Shown: positions 13,279 to 63,434, numbered from the stretch's first letter. The stretch is 64,000 nucleotides of DNA from Candidatus Marinacidobacterales bacterium (GCA_965219415.1 CBDCNP010000002.1:3712001-3776000), one strand, 5' to 3'. Notes: a model not told the origin generated them from the sequence alone. A program made the numbers and translations.

Positions 13279-13279
13279 T

Positions 13280-15307: not shown

Positions 15308-15316
15308 GGCTGAATG

Positions 15317-16300: not shown

Positions 16301-16370
16301 GTCCAGCCCCTCCTTCTGTCCGTTGAAACGCCCTTGGACAGTGCCCGGACCGACGATGATAATGATACCC

Positions 16371-25766: not shown

Positions 25767-28700
25767 CTACCTCTTTTTATCCCAGTAGTCTGTCGGGCGA
25801 TCGTCCGACAAATAGATTCGCGGGTTCAACCATGGATAGTCTCCAAAAGTCTTGGCCTGTGGCCAGATTTCGTCCAGGGTTTCCCCGTCATACAAGACGC
25901 CACCCTTCATCACCATATCGATATCCGCGGTGGCGCGAATGTCGGCAAGCGGATCGGAGTCTAGCACTAGCACGATGAGGTCGGCGAGTTTTCCGGCCTC
26001 GATGGAGCCCAGAGCCTGATCGACTCCAAGAAAGTATGCGCCGTCTCGGCTTGCCAATTCGAGCGCTCCCATCGGGCCGAGTGCGGACGCCGCCATCCAG
26101 ATCTCCCAGTGGGACGCGATGCCATGTTGTTGGCCATGAGAACCGATGGCTCCGTGACCGCCCTCGGCGATGATGTCGGCCAACCCTTGGGCCAATAGTG
26201 GGAAACTATAGTCGGTCACCGGGCGGAGCACTCGCTGACGCGTGTGAGGGACGAGCTGCCTCCACGGCACAAAGCGACGGAGCTTCTCGTCCTTCCATAC
26301 GTCACGCTCTTGATAAAAGTACTCCTCGTTCCAAGGACCAGGGCCGCCAACGACAAACGTCGGCGAGTAAACCGCCTTGGCCTTGCCGAAAAATTGCGCG
26401 ACGTCGCCATAGATCGGGACCGGGATCAACGGATGCCGTCCTGGTAGGTTTTGATCTCGTTGGATCGGGACCAGTCACTGCGGAAGAGCGGATCTCCGGT
26501 GCTGAACGTCCGTGGGCCGACGACCAACCCCGCCTCGATCAGGTCCGCGATGGGGAACGTGTTCTGAGACCACGCCGAGTTCTCGAGCGTGGTGGTGACC
26601 CCGTAGGCAAGGTAGGAGGCGACCTCATAGTCCTTCATCGGTAGGAAGCCGCGTGGCTCCGAGTGACGGTGCGCATGCATGTCAACGAAACCCGGAATGA
26701 TGAACTTTCCTCTGGCGTCCACGAGGCGATCCGCGATCGACGTATCGCAATCTCCAGCACAACGGATGCGTGTTCCCTCGACGACGACGTCGCCTTCCGC
26801 GATCACCTCGCCTTCATCGAGGGTGATGATGCGAGCATCTGTAAAAGCGAGAGTTCCATTCGGTTGGTAGCGGGGCACCTCGAGGTCGAGCGTCACCGAG
26901 CTCTTTTCCTTTGAATCGATGGCGTAGGTAACGTATTGATCGGCGCTTCCGAACTCGATGGACTTCTCGTTCCGCCAGCGCGGAAAGAGCCCGCCCGTCT
27001 CGCTCAGAATGGTCACCGGCCAAGCGGGGTCTCTTCTGTTCAAGAGTGGTACCTCGGCGCCGACTCCGTTCCAGGCAAACGGCGCGAGATAGAGATTGTC
27101 TCCCTCCTGGAAGGCGATGTGCTTTCCGTCAGGGGAAGGCGCCATCTCGTCGGTAAAGGGAAATCTCAGGTGGACCCGACGATCGGTTCCATCCTCCCGG
27201 ATCGAGACGAGATCGCTTCTAAGACGCTCGTCCTCATCCGAGCCCTGTTTCACTTTTTCGGTGAAGAACACCCGACCTTCCGGTCCAAAGAGTGGCCGCA
27301 CGATCGGTGAACGCTCTAGCGACCAAAACTCCCAAGGCGGGCTACGTACTTCGGCGAGATGCACAACGCTACCACCCGAAGCGTTGATTCTTACGAGCTC
27401 GTACCATGGGTTGTCGAGTATCGCGCGCTCGCGGGCGCTCGCTCCTGCCCCACGTACCATGACGATGAACTGGCTGTCCGGGCTCCAAACCGGATTGAAG
27501 TACTCCCCGGAGGTGGGAGTCAGTCTCTCGAGACCCCCTCCCGTCGCAGCGACTCTCCACAGGTTTCCTCTCTGTGCTTCATCAAATGTCGTGAAGGCGA
27601 GCCATCGACCGTCCGGCGACCAGGCCGGTGAGTACTCGAAGGGAGCGAAGTCATGTGCAGTGAGCCGGCGCGGCGCTCCCCCGGAAACATCTTGAAGCCA
27701 GAGCTTCCCCACTGCTTGGAAAACGACGCGTCCGCCATCCGGAGAAGCGGTTGGCCAGCGCGGGAAACGAACCTTCAAGGGTTCGTCGGTCAGCCGCCAA
27801 GAAGCGTAAGCCTGCTCCGAGATCGTCCGTTTCACGCGCGCCGTGAACGGAATGGTTTCCACGCTACCCGTCGCGACAACGACCCGCCGCAGTTTGCCCC
27901 CTTGAGAGAGAAAGATCGAAGTGCCGTCGGGACTCCACGCATAGCCGGGCAGGATCCTCAACGTGGGATCGCCGTCGGTCAGGTCCCGCTCCATCGGATC
28001 CATGAGAACCCGTTCCGAGCCCGTCTCGAGGTCGCGTAGCCAAAGCGCGGTCCGAGGTCCGAACCGATGTCCCTTGTAAGAGATTGTCCCGTCGGGGACA
28101 CGACGTCCGAATGCAATCGTCTCACCGTCCGGCGAAATCTCCGGCGCGTAGGCGCCACCGCTCGAGCTTCGCACCTGCTGCGCCGATGCCCCTGCGGTTA
28201 GCTCCCGCACTTGGCCGGTGCGGAAATCCCACCGTCGAACTTGCCAGAAGCCGGCCAAGGGATCCCCGTGTCCTCCCGGCTTGTCGCCGCCGGTGAAGAC
28301 GTGGAAATAGAGGTGCCTGCCGTTAGGCGAGACCGATGGCCACCTCGCACCTGGTTGTTTCTTATCGATGAGCTTCACGCCCTGTCCGCCCTCCCGGTGA
28401 TACATCCAGACTTCGTTTTTGGAGGGTCGGAACTGCTGAGAAAGCTCGCGGCGGCGGACAACGATGTACTCCCCGTCCGGCGTCCAAGCCGGCTGGGAGA
28501 TCCGAACTTTGTCATCGACCACTACGGCGCGCGGGTTGGACCCATCGGCCTCCATGATCCAGAGGTTTTGCTGCCCTTGGCGGTCGGAAACGAAAGCAAT
28601 CCAACGTCCGTCGGGAGAAAAACGAGGATGGTAATTGACCGCGATGCCACTCCCTTGGGTGAGACATTGGGCTTCGCCTCCCGCAATGGGGACACGATAA

Positions 28701-28897
28701 ATGTGAGCGAGAAGATCGAACACCAACCAGCGTCCATCGCGAGACACGTCCACCGACATCCACGTTCCTTCGCTGGTTACAAAATCGATCTCCCTCGTTT
28801 CCCCGCGAGGCTGGGTGACATCCCACGATTCATCTTCGGGCGATTTGGGACCGAAGCCGAGCAGGAGCAGCGCCAAGCCGAAAGCTATTCTGGACAT
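25767..28897 (-). pseudogene. TolB/PD40-propeller + amidohydrolase fusion, broken near 26430
   Basis: ORF 26426..28897 has a signal peptide, SPDG repeats and PGFVDMHAH. ORF 25767..26429 has GSHGQ and GKLADL. The junction changes frame and seems to lack a central segment. Confidence 0.75.
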
Positions 28898-28940: not shown

Positions 28941-30677
28941 CTATCGGAAGGGAAACCTCGCGACGACTCCTAATCCCTCGACTACCAGGGCCAACTCACC
29001 CGCGCGCAGGGGGCCAAGAGTCTCCTCGCCGGCGCCCGGCCAATGGATACGCACACTCGGAAGCTCGGTCTTGGGACCCAGACCAAGATGAACTACCAGT
29101 TCGTTCTGGGATGCATAGCTCGAGCCAGCGCGGATTTCGGTGACCATGAGTTCTTCACGTTCCCGATCGACGACCAAACGAGCCCCGACTGCGTCGCGGT
29201 TCGACCGACGTCCGATGAGCAGAAGGCGAACTGCATTGCCGGTCGAGGTCTCGTTCATCAGCAAGTCGGGCCGGTCATTCGAATTGGTAAAAAGCAGATC
29301 CAGATCACCGTCTCCTTCAATGTCCGCTACCACCAACCCTCGACCGACCTTCACCAACTCGAATCCCGGGCCGGCTTTTAGGATCTCATCGAAGCGACCA
29401 TCGCCTCGATTCCAAAAGAGTTGATTCCTCTGAGGGTAAGCCGAACCCTCGGTTAATTCGGCGGTGTTGTCCAGAACGTGTCCGTTTGCCACGGCGATGT
29501 CGACGAACCCATCATTGTCCAAGTCGGCAAAGGCGGCGCCGAACCCGAGTGCGCGAATCGAGGGCCGACCGATTCCTGCGTAGGAAGATACATCGGTGAA
29601 GAAGCCGCCCTCGTCGTTCCGGTAAAGGGTGTTGAGCTCACCTTGGAAGTTAGTGACGAAAAGATCGAGATCTCCGTCTCGATCGTAGTCAGCGGTATCG
29701 ACGCCCATACCCGCGAGAGCGCGGCCATCTCCGTCGTAGGCCGCCCCGGATAGTAAAGCCTCTTCGGTGAAGTAGAGATCCCCTTGGTTTCGATAGAGAA
29801 AATTGGGGACGGTATCGTTGGCTACGTAAAGATCGCGCCGGCCATCCCCGTCGTAGTCGAACGCCAGGACACCGAGACCTTTGCCTGTCGGTGTTGCGAT
29901 ACCCGCCTGCAGACTTAGGTCTTCGAACGTTCCGTCGCCCCGATTGCGGTACAAGGCGTCGGTCAGCCCGCGGAAGGCGTCGGGGAGGCAGTAAGAGCGG
30001 AGAACCTTCCCCCCTTTTCGCTGCGAACAATTGGGATTGTTGTCGAAGCCAAAATCCAGGTAGTTCGATACATAGAGGTCCAGGTTGCCGTCGCCATCGA
30101 GATCGGACCAACTCGCCCCCACGCTCCAAAGGGGGTTGACGACTCCGGCCCGCTCTGCCACCTCGCCGAAACTCCCGTCTCCGTTGTTGCGGAAGAGTCG
30201 GTTGGGCCCAAACTCGGTAACGTAGAGATCGAGGTCGCCGTCGTTGTCGTAATCACTCGCCGCGGCGCCCATACCGTAGCCCTCAAAGGTCAGCCCGGAA
30301 AAAGCGGTGACGTCAGAAAAATGTCCTTTACCGTCGTTCCTGTAAAGGGCGCCGTTTATCGGTTCTTGAGGTCCGAATCCAGGAAGCACACCGCCGTTCA
30401 CCAAGTAGAGGTCGGAGTCGAGATCTCCGTCGTAGTCGAAAAACACCGCGCCGGCGCCCATCGTCTCGACCATGTACTTCTCCCCGGAGGCACCGGTGAC
30501 GTGGGTGAAATCAATCCCGGAAGTCACGGTGGTGTCGACGAACCTGAACGCCGCATTTTCTTGCCGAGGGACCGATGATGATAAGGAGACGGCAATGGTG
30601 AATATTGGCAGGCGAGAAAGAAGCCTCACCCGCGCATTATAGTCGCAGTACGGTACGGTGGCCGACGGGTAACCCAC
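28941..30677 (-). CDS. CRTAC1 / ASPIC-UnbV FG-GAP repeat protein; start likely near 30630
   Basis: Repeated DYDxDGDLDL..N..N.LYRN.G; C-terminal GSSYASQ..HLGLG ASPIC motif. Confidence 0.9.
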   Translation of the reverse strand: MGYPSATVPYCDYNARVRLLSRLPIFTIAVSLSSSVPRQENAAFRFVDTTVTSGIDFTHVTGASGEKYMVETMGAGAVFFDYDGDLDSDLYLVNGGVLPGFGPQEPINGALYRNDGKGHFSDVTAFSGLTFEGYGMGAAASDYDNDGDLDLYVTEFGPNRLFRNNGDGSFGEVAERAGVVNPLWSVGASWSDLDGDGNLDLYVSNYLDFGFDNNPNCSQRKGGKVLRSYCLPDAFRGLTDALYRNRGDGTFEDLSLQAGIATPTGKGLGVLAFDYDGDGRRDLYVANDTVPNFLYRNQGDLYFTEEALLSGAAYDGDGRALAGMGVDTADYDRDGDLDLFVTNFQGELNTLYRNDEGGFFTDVSSYAGIGRPSIRALGFGAAFADLDNDGFVDIAVANGHVLDNTAELTEGSAYPQRNQLFWNRGDGRFDEILKAGPGFELVKVGRGLVVADIEGDGDLDLLFTNSNDRPDLLMNETSTGNAVRLLLIGRRSNRDAVGARLVVDREREELMVTEIRAGSSYASQNELVVHLGLGPKTELPSVRIHWPGAGEETLGPLRAGELALVVEGLGVVARFPFR

Positions 30678-30804
30678 GTCCTATAATACCGGCGATTCGT
30701 AACTATCGACACACACTCGGGTGTTAGGCGTTTGCAAAACCGACTCTTCGGTACCATCATGCGGGCCGTCGCGAGCGGAGTTCACGAAAGCAAGGAGAGG
30801 AGAG

Positions 30805-32646
30805 ATGCCATCGAAGCGTTCGGATGACGAACGGCTCGGCATGTTTCGAGCCATCACACGGCGGGATTTTCTCCAAGGGACGGCACTCGCCCTCGCCGCA
30901 CCTGGTTTGGTGCGAGCCCAAGGGCAGGCACATCCCCCTTCTGGCTTCGAGGGCCAGGATGACCCTTCGACCGAGTGCGGCCACCGGGTCCGCGATGGGA
31001 TCTACCAGACGCTCCCCAGCGAAATCGTCGACACCGGCGAGGACTACGATCTCATCGTCGTAGCTGCCAGCCTGGCCGGACTCGCGTCGGCCTACGTGTA
31101 CCAAAAAGAACGTGGAGGTGAGGCGAAGGTTCTCCTGCTCGAGAATAACGACAACTTCGGCGGCCACGCGCGTCGCAACACGTTTCGCTGGAAGAACACT
31201 ACTTTGATCGTCAACGGAGGAACGTATGATCTCGAGGCGCCCGAGAGAGCACCGGCGGAGGCGGCGGAGATTTTCGATGACGTCGGTATCACAGCCGAAA
31301 GGCTAGTCGCTTTTCGGGACCCCGACTACCGGAAGCGCTTCGGCCTCTCTTCCACCGCGTTTTTCGACTCCCGTATTTATCCCGGCATCCGCCCGCAGTT
31401 CGTGCACGGGTTTCACGACATACCGTGGGAGGAGTTCTTCGCCAAGTCTCCCCTGTCCGAAGAAGTCAAACGCGAGCTAGTGACACTCTACACCACACGG
31501 AAGAACTATCTTCCCGGGGTTGAAGAACCCTATCGAGCTCTCGCATCGATGACATGGGAGGAGTACATCCGCGACAAGATGGGACTGGGCGATAACGCCG
31601 TGCGATTCTCGGATATCTACGCAACCGATCTCGGTGGGCTCGGCTGCGATGGGCTGGCCGGGACATACGGCTGGGAGCTCGGCCCGGGTTTTTTCGGTGT
31701 CCATGGAGAAGGCTTTTACGACGACAATGGCTTCATGCGGTACGGCTACCAGCCGATCCACCGATTCCCCGATGGGAATCATAGCGTCGCGCGTCACCTC
31801 CTCAAGAAACTGACCCCGAACGCTATCGATGGACCGGACACCGTCGAAGGTGTGTTCGATGGCCAAATCCATCCCGACCGCTTCGACACGGCGGGCAGCA
31901 ACGTGCGGCTACGGCTGCAGTCCACGGTGATACAGGTCAAGGAGCTCGATGGAGGGAGTCGCGGCGAGATCCTCTCTGCAGCGCCCGACGGTTCCGTTCA
32001 TTCGGTCAAGGCGCGAGGCGCGATCGTCGCAGCCTGGGGGATGGCTGCCAAGCATATCGTCCCCGACATCCCCGACGCGCAGCGCAAGGCGCTCGGCCAG
32101 TATAACTACGCGGCGGCGCTTTACATCAACGTCATGTTGCGCCAGTGGCGGCCGATCGCGGAGGCGGGTGCGTTCGAGATGTATCTTCCCGGCGGATACT
32201 GTATGTGGATGCACCCACTCGATCCGCTACACGTCGGCGACTACCGCCCCGAACATCACCCCGACAAGCCGACCATCCTTTCGATGTTCAAATACCTCCG
32301 CACGCCGGGGCTTCCTCCAGAAGACCAGATGAAGCTTGCCCGGTACGAGCTCGAAAAGAAACCGTTCGAAGACTTCGAGCGCGAAATCCGGAGCGAGCTC
32401 GAGCACATCCTCGGCCCGTGGGGATTCGACCCGGCCAAGGATATCCTGGCGATTACCGTGAACCGTTGGGGACACGGCTACATCGTGTTCCCCCATGCCT
32501 CGGTGGACGCGCCGCCTCAAGAGGCGGGGCGCGAAAGGGTCGGACGCGTCTCGTTTGCGGGTGCAGACGCCGGTGGAGAGCCGTGGACGCAGGCCGCCCT
32601 CCAGCAGGCTCATCGCGCGGCACACGAGCAGCTAGAGCTCGGCTAA
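30805..32646 (+). CDS. Tat-exported FAD oxidoreductase, spermidine dehydrogenase (SpdH)-like (paralog 1)
   Basis: RLGMFRAITRRDFLQG, FGGHARRN, RFPDGN, FDPAKDILAITVNRWGHGY; ATG at 30805 with GGAGAG RBS. Confidence 0.8.
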   Translation: MPSKRSDDERLGMFRAITRRDFLQGTALALAAPGLVRAQGQAHPPSGFEGQDDPSTECGHRVRDGIYQTLPSEIVDTGEDYDLIVVAASLAGLASAYVYQKERGGEAKVLLLENNDNFGGHARRNTFRWKNTTLIVNGGTYDLEAPERAPAEAAEIFDDVGITAERLVAFRDPDYRKRFGLSSTAFFDSRIYPGIRPQFVHGFHDIPWEEFFAKSPLSEEVKRELVTLYTTRKNYLPGVEEPYRALASMTWEEYIRDKMGLGDNAVRFSDIYATDLGGLGCDGLAGTYGWELGPGFFGVHGEGFYDDNGFMRYGYQPIHRFPDGNHSVARHLLKKLTPNAIDGPDTVEGVFDGQIHPDRFDTAGSNVRLRLQSTVIQVKELDGGSRGEILSAAPDGSVHSVKARGAIVAAWGMAAKHIVPDIPDAQRKALGQYNYAAALYINVMLRQWRPIAEAGAFEMYLPGGYCMWMHPLDPLHVGDYRPEHHPDKPTILSMFKYLRTPGLPPEDQMKLARYELEKKPFEDFEREIRSELEHILGPWGFDPAKDILAITVNRWGHGYIVFPHASVDAPPQEAGRERVGRVSFAGADAGGEPWTQAALQQAHRAAHEQLELG

Positions 32647-32672
32647 ACCTGCCACCGGCGTTGGGGCCAGCC

Positions 32673-33182
32673 ATGTCGCGGAAGAAGACCATCCTCCTGA
32701 GCGCTGCCCTGGCGGGACTCGTCGTGCTGGGCTTGGCTGGAGGGATGGTCTGGTTGAGCGAAGCGCGGGCCAGCCCGGAACAGCCCGTTGCCTTCTCTCA
32801 CCGCCAGCATGTCGAGAACAACATTCACTGTTCTTTTTGCCACTCCTACTACGAGAAGCACGACGCGGCCGGGCTTCCGCGCGTCGAGCTTTGTGTGACG
32901 TGTCATGCCTTCATGCCACAGGAGGACCCAGAGAGCCAGAAGCTTCTCGAATACGCCGACAAGGAAAGAGAAATTCCTTGGGTTCACCTGGAGCAGCTAC
33001 CGCAGTACAGCTATTTCAGCCACAAGTGGCACATCCGGGCCGGCCTCGAGTGCTCGGTCTGTCATGGCCCTATCGCCGAGAGCGATCTGGCGGCGCGACA
33101 CGTGGAGTACAAAATGGATTGGTGCGTGACCTGTCACGAAGATAGCGGCGCACCCGTCGACTGCATCCTCTGTCATACATGA
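32673..33182 (+). CDS. Membrane-anchored pentaheme cytochrome c (QrcA/ActA-like)
   Basis: N-terminal TM; PEQPVAFSH; five CxxCH (CSFCH, CVTCH, CSVCH, CVTCH, CILCH); YFSH and MDWC. Confidence 0.9.
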   Translation: MSRKKTILLSAALAGLVVLGLAGGMVWLSEARASPEQPVAFSHRQHVENNIHCSFCHSYYEKHDAAGLPRVELCVTCHAFMPQEDPESQKLLEYADKEREIPWVHLEQLPQYSYFSHKWHIRAGLECSVCHGPIAESDLAARHVEYKMDWCVTCHEDSGAPVDCILCHT

Positions 33183-33189
33183 GTTATTA

Positions 33190-35358
33190 GTGATGAAAAG
33201 ACGGGACTTCCTCAAGAGCACGGTCATTGCCGGGACCGCCGGCTCCTTGCTCGATGCGTGCGCGCCAGGCACCGAAAAAATCATTCCGATTCTGATCGAG
33301 GAAGAGGAGTTCATTCCCGGGGTCGAGGAGTGGTTGGCGACGACCTGTTACCAGTGTCCCGGTGGTTGCGGCCTGCTGGCTCGAAAGATCGACGGGCGGC
33401 TGGTCAAAATAGAAGGCAATCCGGCTCATCCTATTTCTCGAGGAGGCAGTTGTGCGCGGGGGCAGGCTTTACCGCAGGCGCTTTATCACCCCGACCGTGT
33501 GCGCTCGCCTCTCCTGCGCGTCGGTGGGCGAGGCGAGAACCGCTGGAAGACTATTTCCTGGGACGAGGCGCTCGAGCGGCTCGGGTCCGCTCTCAACGAA
33601 GTTCGGGAGAACGACGATGCCGACTCACTCGCCTTCCTGACCGGCGCTCTTCACGGGCACCGCGCGGAGATCGTCAGTCGCTTCTTGATGGCTTTCGGAT
33701 CCCCGCAGCGTCTCATCCACGAGCCGTTCGGAGACCAAGCAGTCCTGCAAGCGCACCGGCTGGCCACGGGCGTGGAGTCTTTCTTCGCAACCGACCTGGA
33801 GAACACCAACTACTTCGTTTCCTTCGGCGCGTCTCTGGTCGATGGCCTGCGATCGCCGGTCCGATTCGGGCGCGGGCTCGGGCATATGCGCCGCGGCCGC
33901 CCCGGGGCGCGCGCCAAGACAGTCGCTGTCGAGCCACGGCTTTCGTTGACCGCGGCGAACGCGGATGAATGGCTTCCGGTACGACCCGGTACCGAAGCGG
34001 CCCTAGCTCTCGGGCTCGCCTTCCTGCTGGTCCACGAGGATTGGATCGACGCCGAGCTCGTTCAAGAAGGAGCGCAGGGCTTCGAGGCGTTTCGAGAAGA
34101 CGTGCTGCCTCGCTTCGAGCCGTCTCGAGTCTCGAACGCGACGGGCATTCCCGAGAAGCAACTGCGGAGAGTCGCAAGAGAGATGGCCGAACACCGACCG
34201 ACCCTGGTCGTGGCAGGAGACGCGGCAGTATCGGGTCCGGCGGGCCTGGCGACGGCTCTCGCGGTCTCGCACTTGAATGCGCTTCTCGGGAGCTACGGAG
34301 CGCCGGGCGGGCTCTATGTGGATCCGAAGCCTCCCTTTACCGCTTGGCCTCCGGTCTCCGCGAAAGAACCGGCGCCCCTTTCTCTGGCCTCCGTCGCCAC
34401 CGAGCTTGCCAGTTCGGCCAGTTCGGCCAGTTCAAAACGTTCCATTGAAGTCCTCCTCGTCTCTGGAACCAACCCCATCCACACGCTCCCCGGGGCGTTC
34501 GAGTTGCGCGAAGCCTTTTCCCGCATCCCGTTCATTGCCGGTTTCACATCCTACCTCGACGAGACGACCGGCTTGGCGGACCTGGTTCTGCCGGAGTCGA
34601 CGCCCTTCGAGCGCTTCGACGACGACGTGCCTTCGCCCGGCGTGAGTATTCCGATGGCTTCTCTTTCCGGTCCACTCTTCGAGCGCCCTCTCTACGACAC
34701 CCGCTCGATGCCCGATGTCCTGATCCAGCTGGCCAATCAGTTAGGTGGTGAGATGGCTTCGGCCTTTCCCTGGCCGTCTTACGAGCAAGCGCTTCGAGAC
34801 GCCTGGTCCGGGTTGGGTGGCGCCGGGTCTTGGGACCGCGCTCTGAAAGAAGGTGGTTGGTGGGACACGACCTATTCACCGCGTGGCCCCGCCGGCCGCT
34901 ACCGGTTCGAGATCGGGCCGTTTCGCGACGCGCGAACCGACGCGCCCACCACCGAGCAAGAGTTCCCTTACTGGCTACACGTTTATCCTTCGGCGTCCTT
35001 GGGTGACGGCAAGAGTGCGAACCTGCCTTTCCTTCAAGAGCTCGCCGATCCCATGACGGGAGTACGCTGGGGGACGGTGATCGAGCTCAACTCCGAGACC
35101 GCCGCCGAGCTCGGTGTCGTGGAAGGCGCAATCGTGGAGCTCGAATCACCTCACGGACGGATTCGAGCCGCTGCGCACCTCACACAGGGACTTCGCCCCG
35201 ATGTCGTTGCGGTGGCCGCCGGACAAGCGCACTCGAGCTACGGTCGCTACGCGAGTGGGCGAGGGGCCAACGTCTTCGAGGTTCTCGCGCCGCACATCGA
35301 GCCCAGCTCGGGCGAAGCGTCGCTATCTTTGACCCGGGTACGGGTACGAAAGATCTGA
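33190..35358 (+). CDS. Molybdopterin-oxidoreductase-fold Tat lipoprotein (QrcB/ActB1-like)
   Basis: MKRRDFLK, lipobox LDAC, CYQCPGGC..C FS0 motif, KIEGNPAHP, DETTGLADLVLP. Confidence 0.88.
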   Translation: MMKRRDFLKSTVIAGTAGSLLDACAPGTEKIIPILIEEEEFIPGVEEWLATTCYQCPGGCGLLARKIDGRLVKIEGNPAHPISRGGSCARGQALPQALYHPDRVRSPLLRVGGRGENRWKTISWDEALERLGSALNEVRENDDADSLAFLTGALHGHRAEIVSRFLMAFGSPQRLIHEPFGDQAVLQAHRLATGVESFFATDLENTNYFVSFGASLVDGLRSPVRFGRGLGHMRRGRPGARAKTVAVEPRLSLTAANADEWLPVRPGTEAALALGLAFLLVHEDWIDAELVQEGAQGFEAFREDVLPRFEPSRVSNATGIPEKQLRRVAREMAEHRPTLVVAGDAAVSGPAGLATALAVSHLNALLGSYGAPGGLYVDPKPPFTAWPPVSAKEPAPLSLASVATELASSASSASSKRSIEVLLVSGTNPIHTLPGAFELREAFSRIPFIAGFTSYLDETTGLADLVLPESTPFERFDDDVPSPGVSIPMASLSGPLFERPLYDTRSMPDVLIQLANQLGGEMASAFPWPSYEQALRDAWSGLGGAGSWDRALKEGGWWDTTYSPRGPAGRYRFEIGPFRDARTDAPTTEQEFPYWLHVYPSASLGDGKSANLPFLQELADPMTGVRWGTVIELNSETAAELGVVEGAIVELESPHGRIRAAAHLTQGLRPDVVAVAAGQAHSSYGRYASGRGANVFEVLAPHIEPSSGEASLSLTRVRVRKI

Positions 35359-35371
35359 GGGAACGATCGAC

Positions 35372-36106
35372 ATGCCGAAATGGGGAATGGTCATCGATCT
35401 AGACCGCTGCACGGGCTGCGAAGCCTGCGTCGTCGGTTGCCGCACCGAGAACAACGTGCCCGTCGCTGGCCCCGAGGAGACCGCGCGCGGTCGGGCCACG
35501 GAGTGGATCCGTGTAGAGAGGTACGTAGAGGGAGACTTCCCGAACGTGAAGGTTCGCTTCAAGCCGGTGCTCTGTGTCCACTGCGACGACGCACCCTGTG
35601 TGAAGGTCTGCCCGGTATCCGCGACCTACGAAACCCCGGACGGGCTCAATGCACAGATCCATCCCCGCTGCATCGGAACGCGCGCCTGCGCCCAGGCTTG
35701 CCCTTACACGGTGCGCTACTTCAATTGGAAGGAGCCCGCTTGGGATGCTCCGCTCGAGCAGACGATCAATCCCGACGTCGCGGTCCGCTGGAAGGGCATC
35801 ATGGAGAAGTGTACCTTTTGTGTTCAGAGGATCCGGCGCTCCAAGGATCAAGCCAAAGAAGAAGACCGTCCCATCGCGGACCGCGAGATCCAGCCCGCTT
35901 GTGCGCAAGCTTGTCCGGCAGATGTGATTACTTTTGGTGACCTCGAGGATCCGGACAGCACGGTGTCCCAACTAGCGGACAGCCCGCGCGCCGAACGGCC
36001 GCTCGAAGAACTGGGCACCGGCCCGCGGGTCATCTACCTCAAGGAAGGAGATTGGCGAGCGAGTGCCAGACCGGACGCCAAATCCAACAATGGCCCAGAC
36101 CATTGA
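35372..36106 (+). CDS. Tetra-[Fe-S] ferredoxin subunit (QrcC/ActB2/NrfC-like)
   Basis: WGMVIDLDRCTGCEACVVGC, CVHCDDAPCVKVCP, CIGTRACAQACP, MEKCTFCVQRI, PACAQACP. Confidence 0.92.
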   Translation: MPKWGMVIDLDRCTGCEACVVGCRTENNVPVAGPEETARGRATEWIRVERYVEGDFPNVKVRFKPVLCVHCDDAPCVKVCPVSATYETPDGLNAQIHPRCIGTRACAQACPYTVRYFNWKEPAWDAPLEQTINPDVAVRWKGIMEKCTFCVQRIRRSKDQAKEEDRPIADREIQPACAQACPADVITFGDLEDPDSTVSQLADSPRAERPLEELGTGPRVIYLKEGDWRASARPDAKSNNGPDH

Positions 36107-37409
36107 AGACCCGCTGATCCGCCCCCTTAGTGAGACCGGCCGCGCATTCTGGATCACGGTCGGGTGCCTCCTGGCGGTCATGGCCTTCGGTGGCTACCAA
36201 TGGTATCGCCAGGTCCGCGACGGCCTCGCGGTGACGGGCATGAACCGTCCCGTCTACTGGGGGCTCTACATTACCAACTACGTCTTCTTCATCGGCATCA
36301 GCCATGCCGGCACGTTGATCTCCGCCATCTTACGACTCACCCATGCCGAGTGGCGGCGACCCATTACGCGTGCCGCCGAGGCCATTACGGTTTTTGCCCT
36401 GGCCATGGGCGCCAGCAACGTTCTTTGGCACCTCGGCCGTCCCGAGCTCATTTATTTACCTCTGCTGCACCCGCAGTTTCTTTCTCCCCTTATCTGGGAC
36501 GTGGTTTGCATCTCCCTATACATGGTGGCGAGCATCGTTTATCTCTACCTTCCACTCATCCCCGACCTGGCGCTGCTACGTGATCGTCTCCCACGACGCC
36601 GTTGGCTATACGCTCCTCTGGCGCTGGGCTGGAATGGGACACCGCGGCAACGTCGGGTTCTACACAAAGCGATCGGTGTCATGGCGGTGGCCATCATTCC
36701 CATCGCCGTCTCCGTGCACACCGTCGTCTCCTGGGTGTTTGCGATGACACTGGTTCCGATGTGGCACTCGGCTATCTTCGGTCCTTACTTCGTGGTGGGA
36801 GCAATTTTCAGCGGCATCGCGGCGATCTTGATCGCCATGGCCATTCTGAGGAAGGTCCTTCGCTTGGAAGCCTATTTTCGCCCGATTCATTTCAACAACC
36901 TCGGGCTCTTGATGCTGACGATGTCTTGCTTGTGGTTCTACTTCACGTTCGCCGAGCACCTCACGACGTGGTACGGGAATCAACCTGAGGAGATGGCGGT
37001 TTTCAACGCGCGGCTCTTCGGTCCCTTCGCGCCTCCCTTCTGGACCATGTTCGCCTGTTGTTTCGTCATCCCGCTCTTCATCCTGGCGTTCAAGCGGACC
37101 CGGACCATCGCCGGTACCGTGATCGCGTCGGTGTCGGTATTGGTCGGCATGTGGCTGGAGCGGTTCATCATCGTGGTCTCCTCGGCCTCGTTCCCGCGGA
37201 TGTCCTTCAACTGGGATCCTGGGATCTACACCCCAAGCCTGGTGGAGATCTCCATGACCGCAGCCCAGTTCGCGTGTTTCGCCTTGATGTACGTCCTGTT
37301 CTCCAAGCTTTTTCCCATCATTTCGATCTGGGAGATCGAAGAGGGCGAAGAAGAGGAAGCGATCCTTCAGGCAACCACACCGGTTTCGCCCACCGAGGTG
37401 TCAATCTAA
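36063..37409 (+). CDS. NrfD/PsrC-family quinone-binding membrane subunit (ActC/QrcD-like); start 36063 or 36090
   Basis: WGLYITNYVFFIGISHAGTLISAIL, HLGRP, SPLIWDV, GMWLERFII; about 10 TM. Confidence 0.9.
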   Translation: MPDRTPNPTMAQTIEDPLIRPLSETGRAFWITVGCLLAVMAFGGYQWYRQVRDGLAVTGMNRPVYWGLYITNYVFFIGISHAGTLISAILRLTHAEWRRPITRAAEAITVFALAMGASNVLWHLGRPELIYLPLLHPQFLSPLIWDVVCISLYMVASIVYLYLPLIPDLALLRDRLPRRRWLYAPLALGWNGTPRQRRVLHKAIGVMAVAIIPIAVSVHTVVSWVFAMTLVPMWHSAIFGPYFVVGAIFSGIAAILIAMAILRKVLRLEAYFRPIHFNNLGLLMLTMSCLWFYFTFAEHLTTWYGNQPEEMAVFNARLFGPFAPPFWTMFACCFVIPLFILAFKRTRTIAGTVIASVSVLVGMWLERFIIVVSSASFPRMSFNWDPGIYTPSLVEISMTAAQFACFALMYVLFSKLFPIISIWEIEEGEEEEAILQATTPVSPTEVSI

Positions 37410-39844
37410 TGTCTTCACGCCAAGCGAGGGTCGTCATCATCGGGGGAGGCGTCGGGGGCTGCAGCGTCCTCTATCACCTAACCAAGCTCGGCTGGACGGA
37501 CGTTCTGCTCCTCGAAAAGAACGAGCTGACCAGCGGCTCGACCTGGCACGCCGCAGGCCTCTGCACGCAGTTCACCGCGAGCTACAACATGATGAAGCTC
37601 CTCAAGTACAGCCTCGATCTGTACGGAACGCTCGAAGCCGGGACCGGACAGCCCGTCGGCTTGCATCGTTGCGGGAGCGTCCGTCTCGCCGTGTCGCAGG
37701 ATCGCCTCGACGAGTTCCACCACCGCGCGGGCATCGCAAAGTGTCTGGGCCTCCCTTTCGAAGTGGTCTCAGCCGAGCGAGCCCGGGAGCTCTTCCCGCT
37801 CGTCGACCTCGACGGAATCGTCGGTGCGGCTCACATCCCGACCGACGGCCACGTCGATCCGAGTGGCGTCTCGCAGGCGCTGGCGAAGGGAGCCCAATCC
37901 GCGGGTGCCGAGATCCTCCGGCACACCGCGGTGACCTCGATCGAGCGAGACGGCGATGCCTGGCTCGTCAAGACCTCGAAGGGCGACATCCGAGCCGAGA
38001 CCGTCGTCAATGCGGCGGGGCAATGGGCAAACCGGATCGGTCAAATGATCGGTGTCAAGCTCCCCATCGTTCCCCTCGAACATCATTACGTCATCACCGA
38101 GGATCTCGAAGCGATACGGGCGACGGACTCCGAGCTACCCGTTCTTCGAGACCCCGATGCTTCCTTCTACGTTCGAGCCGAAGTCGACGCTCTTCTCGTT
38201 GGCCCCTTCGAGCGCCACACGAAACCGTGGGCGCTCGCGGGAGTCCCCGAAGACTTTCACAGCCAACTGCTTCCACCCGATCTCGATCGGCTCGAGGATG
38301 TGCTCGCCGCCGCTGCCAAGCGGGTGCCGGCGTTCGGGGACGCGGGGATCAAGACCATCATCAACGGGCCCGATGCCTACACGCCCGATGGGCTTTGCCT
38401 CATGGGGCCGCTGCCGGGTGTTCCCAACTTCCACGTCCTGGCTGGCTTCAGCATCTTCGGCATCGTCTTCGCGGGCGGCGCCGGTAAGTACGGGGCGGAG
38501 TGGATCGTGAACGGGCAGCCCAGCGACAACATGTGGGAGCTCGATGTGCGCCGGTTCGGAGAATATGCGCGCTCGACGAAGTACGTTGCGGAACGGGCCT
38601 GCGAGGTCTACGGGCTCGAGTACGCCATCCACTACCCGGAAGAAGAGCGCCCCGCGGGTCGCCCTCTGAAGACGGGTCCGCTCTACGATCGCCTACTGTC
38701 GAAAGGAGCGGTGTACGGCGCGCGATTCGGTTGGGAACGCCCACTCTGGTTCGCCGGTGGCGCGAACCATGTCGAACCGGCACGAGACGAATACTCGTTT
38801 CGCCGAGGGAACTGGCATCGTGCTGTCGGCGAGGAGTGCACCGCCGTTCGCTCCCGCATTGGCGTTCTCGATCAGACGAGCTTCGCCAAGTATGAGGTCT
38901 CCGGACCCGGCGCGCGGAGTTTCCTCGACCGCCTCTGCACCAACAAACTGCCGGCCTCCATCGGTCGCATGGTCCTCACCCAGATGTGCACCCCAAGGGG
39001 CGGCATCGAGTGCGATGTCACGGTTACCATGATCGGAGAGGAGCGGTTCTACGTCGTGTCCGCCGCGGGCACCGACTTCCATGATTATTCATGGATCGCA
39101 GGTCACTTGCAGAACCGTGACTCGGTGCGACTCGAGAACGTGACCGCCAGATATGGGGTCCTGACGATTGCCGGTCCTCGCTCACGAGACGTCCTTCAGG
39201 CGATGACCGACGCCGACTGCTCGCGAGAGGCCTTCCGGTTTTTTCGATGCCAGAGGCTTCAGGTAGGGATGGCGCCGGTTCGGACACTTCGGGTCTCCTA
39301 CGTCGGCGAGCTCGGTTACGAGCTCCACCATCCCGTCGAGTACCAGAGGCACATCTACGATCTCTTGATGGAAGCCGGCCGGCGGTTCGAGATCGTCGAC
39401 TTCGGCTACCGGGCGCTCGAGGCGATGCGGCTCGAAAAGGCGTATCGGCTATGGGGCTCGGATATGTCGGCGGACTACACGCCGCTCGAGGCGGGACTCG
39501 ATCGTTTCGTGGACTTCGAAAAAGGCGACTTCATTGGCCGCGATGCCTTGCTCCGACAACGAGAGCAAGGCCCCGAACGCATTTTTGCCTGCCTTGTCAT
39601 CGACGAGACCGACGCCGATCCGCACGGCTTCGAGCCCGTTCTCGCCGACCAGCAGACGATTGGCTATCTCGCCTCGGGGGGCTACGGCTACGTGGTCGGG
39701 AAGGCAATCGGCTTCAGCTATCTTCCGCTGCAGTACGCCGTCCCGAGTACGGAGCTTGTCGTCGAGATCCTCGGCGAACGCCGGCCCGCTAAGGTGGTTG
39801 AACAGCCGCTCTACGATCCGAAGAATGAACGCCTTCTTAGCTGA
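37409..39844 (+). CDS. Dimethylglycine/sarcosine dehydrogenase-like flavoprotein with GcvT (THF-binding) domain
   Basis: TAATG coupling to the upstream gene; GGGVGG, SGSTWHAAG (covalent FAD His), GWERP, SYVGELGYE, RLEKAY. Confidence 0.92.
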   Translation: MSSRQARVVIIGGGVGGCSVLYHLTKLGWTDVLLLEKNELTSGSTWHAAGLCTQFTASYNMMKLLKYSLDLYGTLEAGTGQPVGLHRCGSVRLAVSQDRLDEFHHRAGIAKCLGLPFEVVSAERARELFPLVDLDGIVGAAHIPTDGHVDPSGVSQALAKGAQSAGAEILRHTAVTSIERDGDAWLVKTSKGDIRAETVVNAAGQWANRIGQMIGVKLPIVPLEHHYVITEDLEAIRATDSELPVLRDPDASFYVRAEVDALLVGPFERHTKPWALAGVPEDFHSQLLPPDLDRLEDVLAAAAKRVPAFGDAGIKTIINGPDAYTPDGLCLMGPLPGVPNFHVLAGFSIFGIVFAGGAGKYGAEWIVNGQPSDNMWELDVRRFGEYARSTKYVAERACEVYGLEYAIHYPEEERPAGRPLKTGPLYDRLLSKGAVYGARFGWERPLWFAGGANHVEPARDEYSFRRGNWHRAVGEECTAVRSRIGVLDQTSFAKYEVSGPGARSFLDRLCTNKLPASIGRMVLTQMCTPRGGIECDVTVTMIGEERFYVVSAAGTDFHDYSWIAGHLQNRDSVRLENVTARYGVLTIAGPRSRDVLQAMTDADCSREAFRFFRCQRLQVGMAPVRTLRVSYVGELGYELHHPVEYQRHIYDLLMEAGRRFEIVDFGYRALEAMRLEKAYRLWGSDMSADYTPLEAGLDRFVDFEKGDFIGRDALLRQREQGPERIFACLVIDETDADPHGFEPVLADQQTIGYLASGGYGYVVGKAIGFSYLPLQYAVPSTELVVEILGERRPAKVVEQPLYDPKNERLLS

Positions 39845-39858
39845 CGCTCGTTGCTTCC

Positions 39859-39911
39859 TCACCGGGGATCACCGGGGACCCGTTTGGTGCAAAAAGCGAG
39901 TCGACTCGATG
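39859..39911. repeat. Solo IS terminal repeat preceded by a 10-bp tandem duplication
   Basis: CGTTTGGTGCAAAAAGCGAGTCGACTCGATG (39881-39911) is 30/31 identical to 40264-40294. TCACCGGGGA x2 at 39859-39878. Confidence 0.75.
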
Positions 39912-40225
39912 GTGTTGATCAGTCTGATTTCCTGATGGGTAAGTCGGAGAAATCCGCTCGAGAGTCCGTCATCATTTACATCGGCAACGAGCTTTTTGGT
40001 GTGAAATGGCGCAATTGGAAATTGCTTCTCAAGGAAATCGATGAACACAGTTATGCGATCAGAACAATGGCTTATCCAACAATCTACAATCTGCTCGCAG
40101 ACCCAAAAGAAGAGGTACCCGAACTCAACTATCTCCCTGACACCTGGGTAGACTTTCCCTTGTACCAAGTTTTAGAAGATCACGAAGCATCGATTGAAGA
40201 AGATCCTGGCGCTCCGGATCCGTAA
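39907..40225 (+). pseudogene. Arylsulfatase C-terminal fragment
   Basis: DGVDQSDFL..GVKWRNWK..IYNLLADPKEE; no N-terminal catalytic domain. Confidence 0.7.
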
Positions 40226-41423: not shown

Positions 41424-42883
41424 GGGGATGTCCCGGCCGCTGTTGAATTTGGTCGGGTAGCGGCGGCACCTGTGAATACTCTTAGGCAGCAAACTCATCG
41501 CTGTCAAGAGATTTCTGTTTGCTTCTAAGCGCGTGAACGAAAGCGCCCATATGGCGATAGCCTTTGATACGCCGGAACTTTTTCTGCGCGGTGACGACGC
41601 CAAGAGCGGTCCATCGGCGAACCATGGAAGGACTCTTCCAACGCTTGAGGTTTCTCGATACTCTGCGAATGGTTCCGTTGAGATTCTCAATGGCGTTCGT
41701 CGTGGCAAGAGACTGGCGAAGTAAGGCGGGCAGCGCGAGCTTCACGACCGTGAGTGTCTCTTCCATCCCTTCACGAAGGCTTCCGGCAGCTTCGTCGTAG
41801 CCGTTTCGCTCGAGCCACGACACCAATGCCTGAAGTCGCTTGCGCGCCTTGTCGGCACTCTTGCACTTGTAGGCTTCCTTCATCGTCTGGAGTACGTAGG
41901 CGTGACGAGACTTGGGAAGGTACGAGCGAAGATTCCGGAGTTTATGGATCTGGCACCTTTGGATGACCGCGAGGTCCCCCAAAACGTCGACGAGTGCCTT
42001 GCGGATGCCTTTGCCTCCGTCCACTACGCAGAGAATCGACTCATCGACGCGCAAGCCCCGCTCGAGAAGGTCCTGCAACATCGCGGTGCACACCCGAGAG
42101 TTCTCCGTCGAGCCCAGCCATATACCCAGGGGCACCTTCGTTCCATCTATTGTGATACCTAGAGTTACGACGACGGTCTGTCCGGCCACCTCAAGGCCAT
42201 CCAGCATCAGTGCCGCAAGCTCGAACTCCTCTAGCCGCCGAGACAGGTATTCCTCGAGCTTCTTAGTCGTCTGGCTCACGAGGTGACGGCTGGCGGCACT
42301 CTTACTCGTGCCACGAGACTTCAACTTGGCCGCGGGTTTGTTCAGACTCCGTTCGTAATTTCGGGTCGATACCCCCACCAAGATCTGATTCAACACTCGC
42401 TCTGGAAGCGGGTCTTCTTCGCGGAAGGCTTCGAAGTGTGGAAGCGACGCCTCCTCGCCCGACTTCGAGCGAACTCGAGGTCGCGACACTTGGATGCGAC
42501 GACCACCGAAGCTCAGCTCTCCGTTCGTGCTCCCCCAGTGGTTATGAGTTCGCTCCTTCTCGTGCTTGCCCTTGAGCCCCGCGATCTCCTCGGCGTCCTC
42601 TCTGAGCAGTAGGTGCAGAGCTGTCAGTCCTTGCTCGTACACCCATTCCGTCAGTTCCGCCTTCGTGGCCGCGATCCCAGCTATCATCGGTAGCAGTATC
42701 TGACCGACTTGGCCAACTACCTTGCCCGTAGGCGAGTGCGTTTGCTTTCTTACTGGCTTCTTTGATTTCCTAGGCATTGGTGGCTCCTTGTCCCCCTCTG
42801 GAGACGGTTGTTTGGCAGACCTATTCTTAGGCCGGCCAAGGAGCCGCCGCTACCCCAAATTCAACATCCGGCGGGACATCCCC
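41424..42883 (-). mobile_element. Complete IS256-family element
   Basis: TIRs GGGGATGTCCCGGCCGCTGTTGAATTTGG / CCAAATTCAACATCCGGCGGGACATCCCC; 8-bp TSD CCTACCGG at 41416-41423 and 42884-42891. Confidence 0.93.
41482..42777 (-). CDS. IS256 family transposase
   Basis: GVSTRNY, LMLDG, VVDGGKG, QRCQIHKLRN, TTNAIENLN. Confidence 0.95.
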   Translation of the reverse strand: MPRKSKKPVRKQTHSPTGKVVGQVGQILLPMIAGIAATKAELTEWVYEQGLTALHLLLREDAEEIAGLKGKHEKERTHNHWGSTNGELSFGGRRIQVSRPRVRSKSGEEASLPHFEAFREEDPLPERVLNQILVGVSTRNYERSLNKPAAKLKSRGTSKSAASRHLVSQTTKKLEEYLSRRLEEFELAALMLDGLEVAGQTVVVTLGITIDGTKVPLGIWLGSTENSRVCTAMLQDLLERGLRVDESILCVVDGGKGIRKALVDVLGDLAVIQRCQIHKLRNLRSYLPKSRHAYVLQTMKEAYKCKSADKARKRLQALVSWLERNGYDEAAGSLREGMEETLTVVKLALPALLRQSLATTNAIENLNGTIRRVSRNLKRWKSPSMVRRWTALGVVTAQKKFRRIKGYRHMGAFVHALRSKQKSLDSDEFAA

Positions 42884-44064: not shown

Positions 44065-45399
44065 ATATGGGTTGTCCGCCATCATTATCAATCCGTCGGT
44101 ACCGTAGGCCCGTGCGGCTCGGCGATGACGACGATAGCGGACTCGACGTAGGGCGAACGCTACCAGGATCACGCGACCTGTGGTTTCACGAGCTGGAGAA
44201 CGCAAGTTTCGACGGCTCCCGCCGCGCGAGTTTCGCGACGAAATAACTGCCCTACGCAGCCTCGCTCCACTCGTAGCGGTGGTGCAGTCCACCAACTCTC
44301 GGCAGCGCCACAACTTTCGCCGTGGGGGACGGTCGAGGCGTGATTAGTCTCTCGTTCGGCGTGTCTACGGCCGGCGCGAGAGGCGTCCACTTGGCGACGA
44401 GCTCGTCATAGGCTTTGCGAGCATCGATCCCGTTCTTGGCGTAGACGATCCGGTTGTAGTCACGCCGGAGCTCACGGCGTGCGTGCGCCGGGCAATGTTG
44501 GAGCAAGTTGGCGCGCTTGTGCTCGGTACATCGCTGCAACCGGCACTCCGGCCACTTCTCCAGCGCTTTCGTCAGCCCCTTGTGGCCGTCGCTGATCACT
44601 AGCTTGGGAGCCCGGAGTCCTCGAGCCTGGAGTCCCTCCAGCACGGAGCCCCAATGCGTCGAGGCTTCGCTCACCGCCAGACGCAATGACAACAGACGTT
44701 TGTGCCCGTCTGGCGCGACCCCGAGCGCGGCCAGTACGGGTACGCTGATCACACGTTTCGCCATCCGCACTTTCAGGTGGAAGCCGTCCAGGTAAACGAT
44801 CGCGTAGACCTCCTCGCTGAGAGCACGGTTCTGCCATTCCTCGAAGCGCTCCTTCAGCCGGCTAACCACGCGAGACACCGCGCTCTTCGATAGGTGCTCC
44901 CCACCGAGCAGTGGTTTCAGCGCTTTGCGGATCCGGCGGCTATTCGCGCCCGACAAGTACGTCCCCAAGAGCGCCTCGTCGACCTCACGAGTCCGGCGCG
45001 CGTACCGGGGCAACAGCTCGCTCCTGAACTCTGCCGTTTCTCCCGTTTCCTCGTCTCGCACGCGGGCTCGTGGCACCCGGAGCTCGCGAGTTCCCACCGA
45101 CGTCGTCACGCGACGGGTTTCGGCTCCGTTGCGATATCCACGGCGGTCTTCCGCACGCTCGTAGCTACAACACCCCAGCGCTTGGTCGACTTCTTCCTCA
45201 AGCACAACCTCGATCGCCTCCAGTACCCGCATACGCAGCCGAAGTTGGACGAACTCCCGGTACTCGCTTACAGACTCCTTCGATATGGTGGTAGGCTTCT
45301 TCATGGCGTAATCCTCCTCCTCGCCTTTCCAGGCGCGGTTTGGTTTTGCTTAACCGGAGGTTACGCCATTCTTATTTCCACGGGAAGCGGGACGGATCC
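44065..45399 (-). mobile_element. Truncated IS256 transposase fused to the 3' end of an rve-integrase IS
   Basis: ORF 44252..45304 has IS256 motifs (GYRNG, LPRYARR, VYLDG, ISDGHKG, QRCTEH). It then switches to ..VVALPRVGGLHHRYEW..AA*, the typical integrase-IS tail. Boundaries approximate. Confidence 0.75.
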
Positions 45400-51095: not shown

Positions 51096-51143
51096 GGGTA
51101 GGATAGGCAAGTCCGGAAGGGAAACAAACGAGGAGAACACTAC

Positions 51144-52376: not shown

Positions 52377-52398
52377 ATCCCCCCCCCTTTGTGAAGAT

Positions 52399-54404: not shown

Positions 54405-54603
54405 TGCAACGGAAACTCATGAACCTCTCATTGATTCCTATCTCCATCCTCGTGTCCACCCTCTTCGCAAAGCCGTCATTTCGAAAGTGTGCCAATCTTA
54501 GTTGGGAATTGAAACGGCTCCAAACCCCGTGGTTTGATGGCGTTGGACAAAACAAAATCAAGCCGCGAAGAAAGGAGCCGAGATCCGGAATCCGAATCTG
54601 GTA

Positions 54604-55029: not shown

Positions 55030-55089
55030 ACGCAAGAGGCGCAGAATATGGCGCGAGACGTTTTCGCCCCCCGACTGAGCATCGGATGC

Positions 55090-56107: not shown

Positions 56108-56134
56108 ATCCTTCATTTGTGCCCCAATGCGCGC

Positions 56135-57055: not shown

Positions 57056-57082
57056 TCCGTTCCTTTCGTCGCTACGCTGACG

Positions 57083-57883: not shown

Positions 57884-57945
57884 TTTGCTTCCGATGAGTA
57901 CTCTTTCCCTGCGGGTGTGTCAACTTGAAGGCGCGGAGTTAACCA

Positions 57946-63421: not shown

Positions 63422-63434
63422 ATGTGAGCGTTGC

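Follow-up and report, generated by a model that had tools for sequence, protein, structure and literature searches.

A six-gene redox cluster in Candidatus Marinacidobacterales

We analysed a 64,000-nt stretch of DNA from a Candidatus Marinacidobacterales bacterium (GCA_965219415.1, CBDCNP010000002.1:3712001-3776000; hereafter the window, whose coordinates are used unless another contig is named), in which six genes at 30805-39844 place a four-subunit redox cassette, related to alternative complex III (ACIII) and to the QrcABCD complex, between the genes for two flavoproteins. All six open reading frames (ORFs) are intact and lie co-directionally on the plus strand. Based on Pfam, NCBIfam and PDB matches, the first (30805-32646) encodes a periplasmic FAD/heme b amine dehydrogenase resembling spermidine dehydrogenase (SpdH), here termed the type A paralogue. 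It is followed by the cassette itself, which comprises genes for a membrane-anchored, ActA/QrcA-like pentaheme cytochrome c of 169 amino acids (cytc, 32673-33182), an ActB1/QrcB-like molybdopterin-fold subunit of 722 amino acids exported by the twin-arginine translocation (Tat) pathway (moB, 33190-35358), an ActB2/QrcC-like Fe-S subunit of 244 amino acids (fesC, 35372-36106) and an ActC-like, quinone-interacting membrane subunit of the NrfD family of 439 amino acids (nrfD, 36090-37409). The last gene (37409-39844) encodes a cytoplasmic FAD/tetrahydrofolate (THF) N-demethylase of 811 amino acids of the dimethylglycine dehydrogenase (DMGDH) type. Read directly, the first four genes are separated by 26, 7 and 13 nt in turn; fesC and nrfD overlap by 17 nt (36090-36106), and nrfD meets the DMGDH-type gene at a TAATG stop/start with a 1-nt overlap (37407-37411). 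In each of these respects, and in the domain content of the six products, direct reading agrees with an earlier account of the window, hereafter the preliminary description.

The cluster is not an assembly artefact, as assembled contigs bridge its critical junctions. A contig of 9872 nt from run X7 covers 30225-40096 with 38 differences and no indel, and contigs of three other runs (X1, X3 and X10) also cross both the 32646/32673 and the 37409 junctions. The runs are public and belong to four studies, and the window itself may derive from one of them; since the X7/X10 variant differs by about 0.4%, the arrangement is common to at least two strains. Among the 37 of 38 X7 differences that were classified, 21 are nonsynonymous, 14 synonymous and 2 intergenic, which is too few to assess selection gene by gene. 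The GC content of the cassette (0.63, compared with about 0.59-0.60 in its flanks) is likewise too weak an argument for transfer.

The cassette combines features of ACIII and Qrc

The cytochrome carries CxxCH motifs at residues 53, 74, 127, 151 and 164, and its best PDB matches are the ActA chains of ACIII (8k9e_A, 101 bits; 6f0k_A, 94 bits). Five such motifs are present in 20 of the 21 orthologues examined, and the heme-binding cysteines and histidines are all invariant in 18 orthologues. The Fe-S subunit contains 15 cysteines in a 4+4+3+2+2 pattern, from which one [3Fe-4S] and three [4Fe-4S] clusters are predicted; this is the composition of QrcC (PMC8076601) and of ActB2, and its best PDB match is the C-terminal domain of ActB (6f0k_B, 250 bits). 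The membrane subunit matches Pfam NrfD with 123 bits and the ActC chain 6f0k_C with 259 bits over residues 16-417 (402 residues). Its C-terminal tail, compared with read-through at the TAATG junction in mind, is variable but of similar length across all orthologues, and is uninformative on recombination.

The molybdopterin-fold subunit begins with MMKRRDFLK...LLDAC and contains the Pfam domains Molybdop_Fe4S4, Molybdopterin and Molydop_binding. For its N-terminal half the best PDB matches are Thermus thermophilus PsrA (209 bits) and then ArrA (187 bits). The cysteine that ligates molybdenum in PsrA (Cys173 of 2vpw_A), however, aligns to the proline of IHEPFGDQ, or to a glycine in the ArrA alignment. 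An alignment of 32 molybdopterin-fold sequences comprised 26 unfused orthologues and six fused ActB forms from the phylum. All 32 keep the FS0 motif CxxCxxxC...C, and none has a cysteine at the molybdenum-ligand site. The subunit is probably non-catalytic. It is also the least conserved of the large subunits, with identities of 30-57% as compared with 51-81% for fesC and nrfD.

These proteins share with the ACIII of R. marinus (6F0K), F. johnsoniae (6BTM) and R. castenholzii (6LOD) the pentaheme ActA-like cytochrome, a B1-type molybdopterin fold without a molybdenum ligand, a B2-type Fe-S part with 15 cysteines and an ActC-like NrfD protein, and in the PDB three of the four have an ACIII chain as their best-scoring match. 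Unlike in ACIII, B1 and B2 are encoded in the window by separate genes 13 nt apart. Furthermore, the window B1 keeps its four FS0 cysteines, whereas PMC5928083 describes the R. marinus B1 as having no prosthetic group. The genome also lacks ActD and the second NrfD-like subunit, ActF, the cluster does not lie beside an oxidase, and the monoheme cytochrome is encoded elsewhere and belongs to a family that resembles ActE only weakly (34 bits).

With the QrcABCD menaquinone reductase of sulfate-reducing Desulfobacterota, which works with periplasmic hydrogenase or formate dehydrogenase and cytochrome c3, the cassette shares its gene order, the absence of subunit fusions and an Fe-S subunit that fits the same set of clusters, and three of the four proteins score highest in NCBIfam against a Qrc model. 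All four scores nevertheless fall below the equivalog cut-offs (QrcA, 90 bits against 180; QrcB, 350 against 440; QrcC, 260 against 400; QrcD, 44 against 570), and for the membrane subunit ActC or DsrP gives a higher score than QrcD. In addition, the cytochrome has five hemes rather than the six given for QrcA in PMC8076601, and the molybdopterin-fold subunit retains the FS0 motif, in contrast to a QrcB that is described in PMC13059093 as free of cofactors. The label 'Qrc/ACIII hybrid' used in the preliminary description is thus a fair one, given that ACIII proteins are the best matches in the PDB and Qrc models the best in NCBIfam, the latter all below cut-off.

Of the published descriptions that we found, two come closest: the split actB1/actB2 genes of neutrophilic iron oxidisers and the act-like clusters, likewise reduced, known from MBNT15. 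The actAB1B2CDEF clusters of iron oxidisers have a separate actB1 with a CX2CX3CX27C motif next to actB2 (PMC4643136), and the ActABCD(E) variants of MBNT15 are reduced act-like clusters located away from oxidase genes (PMC9386147). Both, however, keep ActD and mostly ActE and ActF, and the descriptions of them in PMC4643136 and PMC9386147 that we drew on report none beside SpdH-like or DMGDH-like genes. Among the matching papers that were listed in a literature search, none joins spermidine dehydrogenase with dimethylglycine dehydrogenase, ACIII or Qrc. Taken together, the cassette would work like ACIII or Qrc while being, by defining features, a member of neither.

In the whole genome (8.05 Mb, 96% complete), no match to ActD (PF11821) was detected and no ActF was found. 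A search for NrfD-family genes found none besides the window nrfD, hence no DsrP either. Three to four COX1 matches are present, with one cytochrome b gene about 5 kb from the strongest of them, so that a bc-type complex is available for quinol oxidation. The possibility, raised in the preliminary description, that actDEF and an oxidase elsewhere complete a standard ACIII does not hold, because there is no ActD and no second NrfD-family gene.

The flanking genes encode SpdH-like and DMGDH-type flavoproteins

The first gene of the cluster starts at an ATG with GGAGAGGAGAG just before it. Its product carries a Tat export motif and gives weak Pfam matches to Amino_oxidase and NAD_binding_8, and it aligns over its full length (residues 16-608, E 1e-79) with the solved SpdH of P. 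aeruginosa (PDB 7d9f). In SpdH, the axial ligands of heme b are His54 and His562 (PMC12564564). A HMMER alignment places H60 (in ECGHRV) and H557 (in NRWGHGY) of the window protein at these two positions, and both are invariant in all 17 aligned homologues. The identification of this flavoprotein as SpdH-like in the preliminary description is well founded on these grounds. Beyond the full-length homology, the window protein has in common with P. aeruginosa SpdH (PDB 7D9F/7D9G) a Tat-type N-terminus, an FAD-binding fold and both heme b histidines. It differs in that the similarity is moderate in the HMMER alignment. Its gene, moreover, is one of many acidobacterial paralogues, and a DMGDH-type gene is linked to it both in this genome and in others. 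SpdH-like matches occur in 37 of 301 genomes sampled from the phylum, often in several copies each.

According to PMC12564564, the heme b of SpdH is surface-exposed and reduced by FAD, and the enzyme accepts cytochrome c in vitro. Since both heme b ligands are kept, electron transfer from the window flavoprotein to the pentaheme cytochrome is plausible. The onset potential reported for SpdH heme b (-0.14 V vs Ag/AgCl; PMC12564564) would, by our own conversion, lie above that of menaquinone, making quinone reduction uphill, and delivery to cytochromes and an oxidase would for this reason be favoured over delivery to the quinone pool. A complex prediction for residues 45-613 of the SpdH-like protein with one heme and residues 33-169 of the cytochrome scored 0.00 in both runs and bears neither way.

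The last gene of the cluster encodes a protein with DAO, FAO_M, GCV_T and GCV_T_C domains. It matches mammalian DMGDH (4pab_A) with 675 bits (E 1e-201) and, far more weakly, the dimethylglycine oxidase of Arthrobacter (1pj5, 426 bits), which confirms its earlier assignment as DMGDH-like. With rat and human DMGDH (4PAB/5L46) it shares the same four-domain architecture and a very strong full-length similarity. Unlike these, it is a bacterial enzyme known by sequence, and its gene is translationally abutted to that of a membrane protein. No signal peptide is visible at its N-terminus (MSSRQARVVIIGGG). Genes for electron transfer flavoprotein (ETF) and an ETF:quinone oxidoreductase (ETF-QO)-like protein are present in the genome, and the DMGDH-type enzyme can use these, its usual acceptor system.

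The cassette occurs without the flavoproteins in other genomes

To place the cassette in a wider context, its genes were used as queries against the 301-genome phylum sample, 41 genomes of relatives and a collection of 185,579 species; the tally of relatives takes in one unpublished genome, on which nothing rests. In the phylum sample, the molybdopterin-fold subunit found matches at 1e-60 in 65 of the 301 genomes, including fused ActB frames of about 1000 amino acids. Sixteen of the 71 matched places, picked for frames of unfused size, were compared further. The order cytc-moB-fesC-nrfD was found in 15 of these 16 loci and an ActD gene after the cassette in five of the 15 annotated ones, and none of the 16 had a DMGDH gene nearby. 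Three (L059, L061 and L062, all from one genus) do have a SpdH-like gene near the cassette, convergent to it and beyond the ActD gene. Because these three genomes hold many SpdH-like copies, with at least four matches each, this adjacency may be due to chance.

Closer to the window genome, a cassette match was detected in 15 of the 17 genomes of family f91. The two congeners gave no match to the cassette, and the DMGDH gene is absent from them too. The full cytc-moB-fesC-nrfD cassette is present in 13 of the 16 stretches taken from relatives of the same order, with NrfD identities of 62-72%, and neither flavoprotein gene was found in any of the 16. In the species collection, the NrfD query returned 490 confirmed relatives, from which the best 80 loci were taken (57-76% identity). 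They belong to Acidobacteriota, Myxococcota, Thermodesulfobacteriota, Planctomycetota, Binatia, Rokubacteria, Zixibacteria and other groups. Many of their contigs are short; even so, fesC was found in 77, moB in 71, cytc in 60 and all four genes in 60 of these 80 loci, together with a monoheme cytochrome c in 17 and a tblastn-detected ActD homologue in 6. Within 8 kb of the cassette, none of these best 80 loci contains a SpdH-like gene, and none contains a DMGDH gene. As the flavoproteins were not found beside the four redox genes across phyla, we regard these genes as a common, autonomous module. Conserved synteny between SpdH-like and qrcABCD-like genes, a check proposed in the preliminary description, was not found, save for the convergent SpdH paralogue in the three loci of one genus. 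What these loci show instead, redox genes that usually lack the flavoproteins in relatives, is the pattern that the preliminary description had named as counting against its module.

SpdH-like and DMGDH genes form a conserved pair of their own

A parallel search with the DMGDH-type gene yielded 79 loci, spread over Acidobacteriota, Gemmatimonadota, Myxococcota, Gaiellales and other groups, whose homologues show 40-76% identity. A SpdH-like gene lies within 10 kb of DMGDH in 15 of these loci and is directly adjacent in 10; cassette genes were found in none of the 79. The 10 adjacent loci (L103, L108, L109, L111, L112, L113, L114, L160, L164 and L166) fall into two subtypes and two orientations. 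In L109, L113 and L114, orthologues of the window flavoprotein (67% identity) lie convergently, 15-27 nt downstream of DMGDH, and in L103, L111, L112, L160, L164 and L166 a second SpdH-like subtype lies directly upstream of DMGDH and co-directional with it. SpdH-like and DMGDH genes are thus a conserved pair of their own in Acidobacteriota and Gemmatimonadota. Three genomes (G341, G343 and G344) contain both the pair and an nrfD orthologue (71-77% identity), the latter outside the 10-kb flanks of the pair.

Searching from the other side, a single-sequence flavoprotein query gave no match in genome or metagenome contigs, and an alignment query (A1) did retrieve loci. Among 80 SpdH-like metagenome loci found with A1, many of them on short contigs, the cassette was detected in none and DMGDH in none. 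As a group, SpdH-like genes show no linkage to the cassette or to DMGDH. In eight neighbourhoods of the flavoprotein/DMGDH pair, the only recurrent partners were a formate-THF ligase in three cases and an SSF transporter in one, and they offered no clue to the substrate. Two loci deserve mention: L108 carries a homocysteine S-methyltransferase gene just before DMGDH, and in L156 (10001-14856) DMGDH and a convergent SpdH-like orthologue are both fragmentary, so that the pair seems to be decaying.

A probable move of the cassette from its usual neighbourhood

In ten cassette loci of close relatives, a monoheme cytochrome c gene follows nrfD in eight, and a thioredoxin-like redoxin gene comes next in seven; ccdA lies immediately upstream of the cassette in three. 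Locus L090 has no ccdA, monoheme cytochrome c or redoxin gene. In L087 (genome G314, 9053-18204), the ccdA-cytochrome c-redoxin group lies about 3 kb from the cassette in opposite orientation, an arrangement which suggests that the cassette is mobile as a block in more than one lineage.

In the window's own genome (G000), contig C1 contains ccdA, a monoheme cytochrome c gene, an ORF of 264 amino acids and a redoxin gene at 899776-902343, with the same flanking genes as in relatives; the four cassette genes are missing, and 32 nt separate ccdA from the cytochrome gene. The encoded monoheme cytochrome c (C1:900546-901040) is 48-59% identical to its cassette-linked counterparts. Both congeners (L182 and L183) have the same cassette-less ccdA-monoheme cytochrome c-redoxin locus. 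In a fesC+nrfD tree (31 rows, rooted at midpoint only, with the partial L100 and L066 left out), G000 is sister to a clade of G157 and twelve f91 genomes, with SH-aLRT values of 100 and 95. This position fits old resident genes that moved within the lineage and were lost in the congeners.

Genes surrounding the cluster

Upstream, the cluster is bounded by a divergent FG-GAP/ASPIC gene. Further upstream, at 25767-28897 on the minus strand, two ORFs with a 4-nt overlap encode a PD40 beta-propeller followed by N- and C-terminal amidohydrolase parts, and possibly represent one gene split in two.

Directly after the DMGDH-type gene, an ORF of 124 amino acids (39851-40225, plus strand) shows no Pfam family and no CxxCH motif, and may be the remnant of a gene cut by nearby transposase insertions. 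Two Mutator-family transposase genes follow on the minus strand at 41482-42777 and 44252-45304 (Transposase_mut, E 4e-42 and 2e-67), and beyond them lies a broken second SpdH-like gene, of the type B paralogue (45783-47683, plus strand). Its tblastn pieces (45783-46016, 46039-46578 and 46718-47683) are in three different frames and are closest, at 45-47% identity, to the genes directly upstream of DMGDH in L103, L160, L164 and L111. Genes for an SSF transporter and an IclR regulator come next (47860-49338). Because intact relatives of the broken copy precede DMGDH, and because the order in L160 is SpdH-like, DMGDH and SSF transporter, this region suggests an older flavoprotein-DMGDH-transporter operon that was disrupted by insertion sequence (IS) elements.

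Further downstream (50235-63968) lies a one-carbon and methyl-amine neighbourhood. It comprises an MTHFR-like gene (50235-51095), a zinc alcohol dehydrogenase and a second SSF transporter, a DAO-family oxidoreductase (57946-59217, minus strand), the alpha subunit of a Rieske ring-hydroxylating oxygenase (59549-60463), a GcvT-like protein (60250-61701), a formate-THF ligase (61745-63421) and, at the window end, a further GcvT C-terminal piece.

Discussion

On balance, we lean towards reading the cluster as a juxtaposition, specific to this species, of two independently conserved units. The first unit (32673-37409) would be a four-subunit module of the ACIII/Qrc type, with FS0 cysteines and without a molybdenum-ligand cysteine, that links the quinone pool to periplasmic c-type cytochromes by electron transfer, in a direction that is as yet presumptive. 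The path most likely consists of a heme/Fe-S wire and an ActC-type quinone site, as in its relatives, and the usual partner would be the monoheme cytochrome c still encoded at the old locus on contig C1. The second unit would be formed by the SpdH-like amine dehydrogenase and the DMGDH-type N-demethylase, a pair that most likely belongs to the catabolism of an N-methyl amine, inside the wider one-carbon/THF neighbourhood. The cassette of this lineage is now flanked by the two genes of the pair, with IS elements and a decayed SpdH-like paralogue close by, and we infer that the cassette came there by relocation rather than by re-acquisition. The tight spacing suggests that the six genes are probably co-transcribed, and co-transcription would place the cassette under common regulation with amine catabolism. 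As to the preliminary description, its gene identifications stand, whereas the dedicated amine-respiring module that it proposed is possible but less well supported than two separately conserved systems.

Several observations weigh against a mere juxtaposition. The junctions are very tight (26 nt on one side, the 1-nt TAATG overlap on the other), as would befit a functional operon, and no terminator-like site was found between the cluster genes, in a scan whose promoter and terminator counts did not exceed those of shuffled controls and which is thus uninformative. Two strain variants carry all six genes intact, and no indel occurs over 30225-40096. The cassette has also lost its adjacent monoheme cytochrome c and now stands beside a member of an exposed-heme b family. 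SpdH enzymes reduce cytochrome c in vitro (PMC12564564), and hand-over to the pentaheme subunit would be chemically reasonable. In one genus, three genomes with a SpdH paralogue convergent to the cassette offer a second, independent adjacency. As for the relocation, the tree position fits vertical descent followed by a move, but the cassette may instead have been re-acquired horizontally from an unsampled relative.

The foremost alternative, which we regard as unlikely, takes up the module of the preliminary description and adds that the relocation was adaptive, so that all six genes would serve together in amine:quinone respiration. The SpdH-like enzyme would oxidise a polyamine or another amine, its heme b would reduce the pentaheme cytochrome, and electrons would pass along the Fe-S wire to the quinone site of NrfD, in the Qrc direction and possibly electrogenically, with the DMGDH-type enzyme handling the N-methyl groups of imported products. 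The operon-like spacing, the contiguity of intact genes in strains from four studies, the invariant heme b ligands in 17 of 17 homologues and the loss of the neighbouring monoheme cytochrome c are all consistent with such a module, as is the transfer from FAD to heme b and on to cytochrome c in vitro (PMC12564564). Moreover, Qrc shows that the architecture can run from cytochrome to menaquinone (PMC13059093), and the genome, which has no ActD or ActF, possesses a cytochrome b complex for ordinary quinol oxidation. The arrangement was nevertheless found in no other genome, with counts of 0/80, 0/16 and 0/79 in the locus comparisons and 0/80 in the metagenome SpdH loci. Elsewhere the two units do without each other, no cassette lying near the pair and no pair near the cassette; the converted SpdH heme b potential would lie above that of menaquinone, and the DMGDH-type enzyme is cytoplasmic with ETF/ETF-QO on hand. 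We consider it distinctly unlikely that the SpdH-like flavocytochrome b captured the relocated minimal ACIII/Qrc module as a private acceptor, which would make the ensemble an amine:quinone or amine:cytochrome c/oxidase oxidoreductase. Highly improbable is a third reading, in which a molybdenum- or tungsten-bis(pyranopterin guanine dinucleotide) cofactor makes the molybdopterin-fold subunit a genuine enzyme of the polysulfide, thiosulfate or arsenate reductase type and the four genes encode a periplasm-facing terminal reductase with an extra cytochrome: the PsrA and ArrA matches, an NCBIfam PhsA score of 278 bits, the retained FS0 motif and an FdhD gene about 5 kb downstream in L051 agree with it, but the PhsA score is far under the cut-off of 694, the Cys173 position holds proline (glycine against ArrA) with no orthologue having cysteine there, the subunit is the least conserved of the large ones, and its partners are ActC/ActB2-like rather than PsrC/PsrB-like.

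The preferred reading, of two units brought together in one species, bears on how such loci should be read. The novelty of the gene order is real and limited to one species, in keeping with the earlier remark that a described system with this arrangement is not known, since none of the other loci that we examined shares it. It also illustrates that a function read from the gene order of a single genome, in an IS-rich region, can mislead. If, on the other hand, the flavoprotein does use the cassette as its private acceptor, periplasmic amine oxidation would feed directly into an energy-conserving membrane complex, the cassette would be the first candidate partner and physiological electron acceptor for SpdH-type amine dehydrogenases, and a respiratory module of the Qrc/ACIII type would have been recruited into a catabolic operon. 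Regardless of coupling, many phyla share a reduced ActA/B1/B2/C cassette that keeps FS0 and usually has ccdA, a monoheme cytochrome c and a redoxin as linked genes, and the SpdH-like/DMGDH pair points to an uncharacterised amine pathway.

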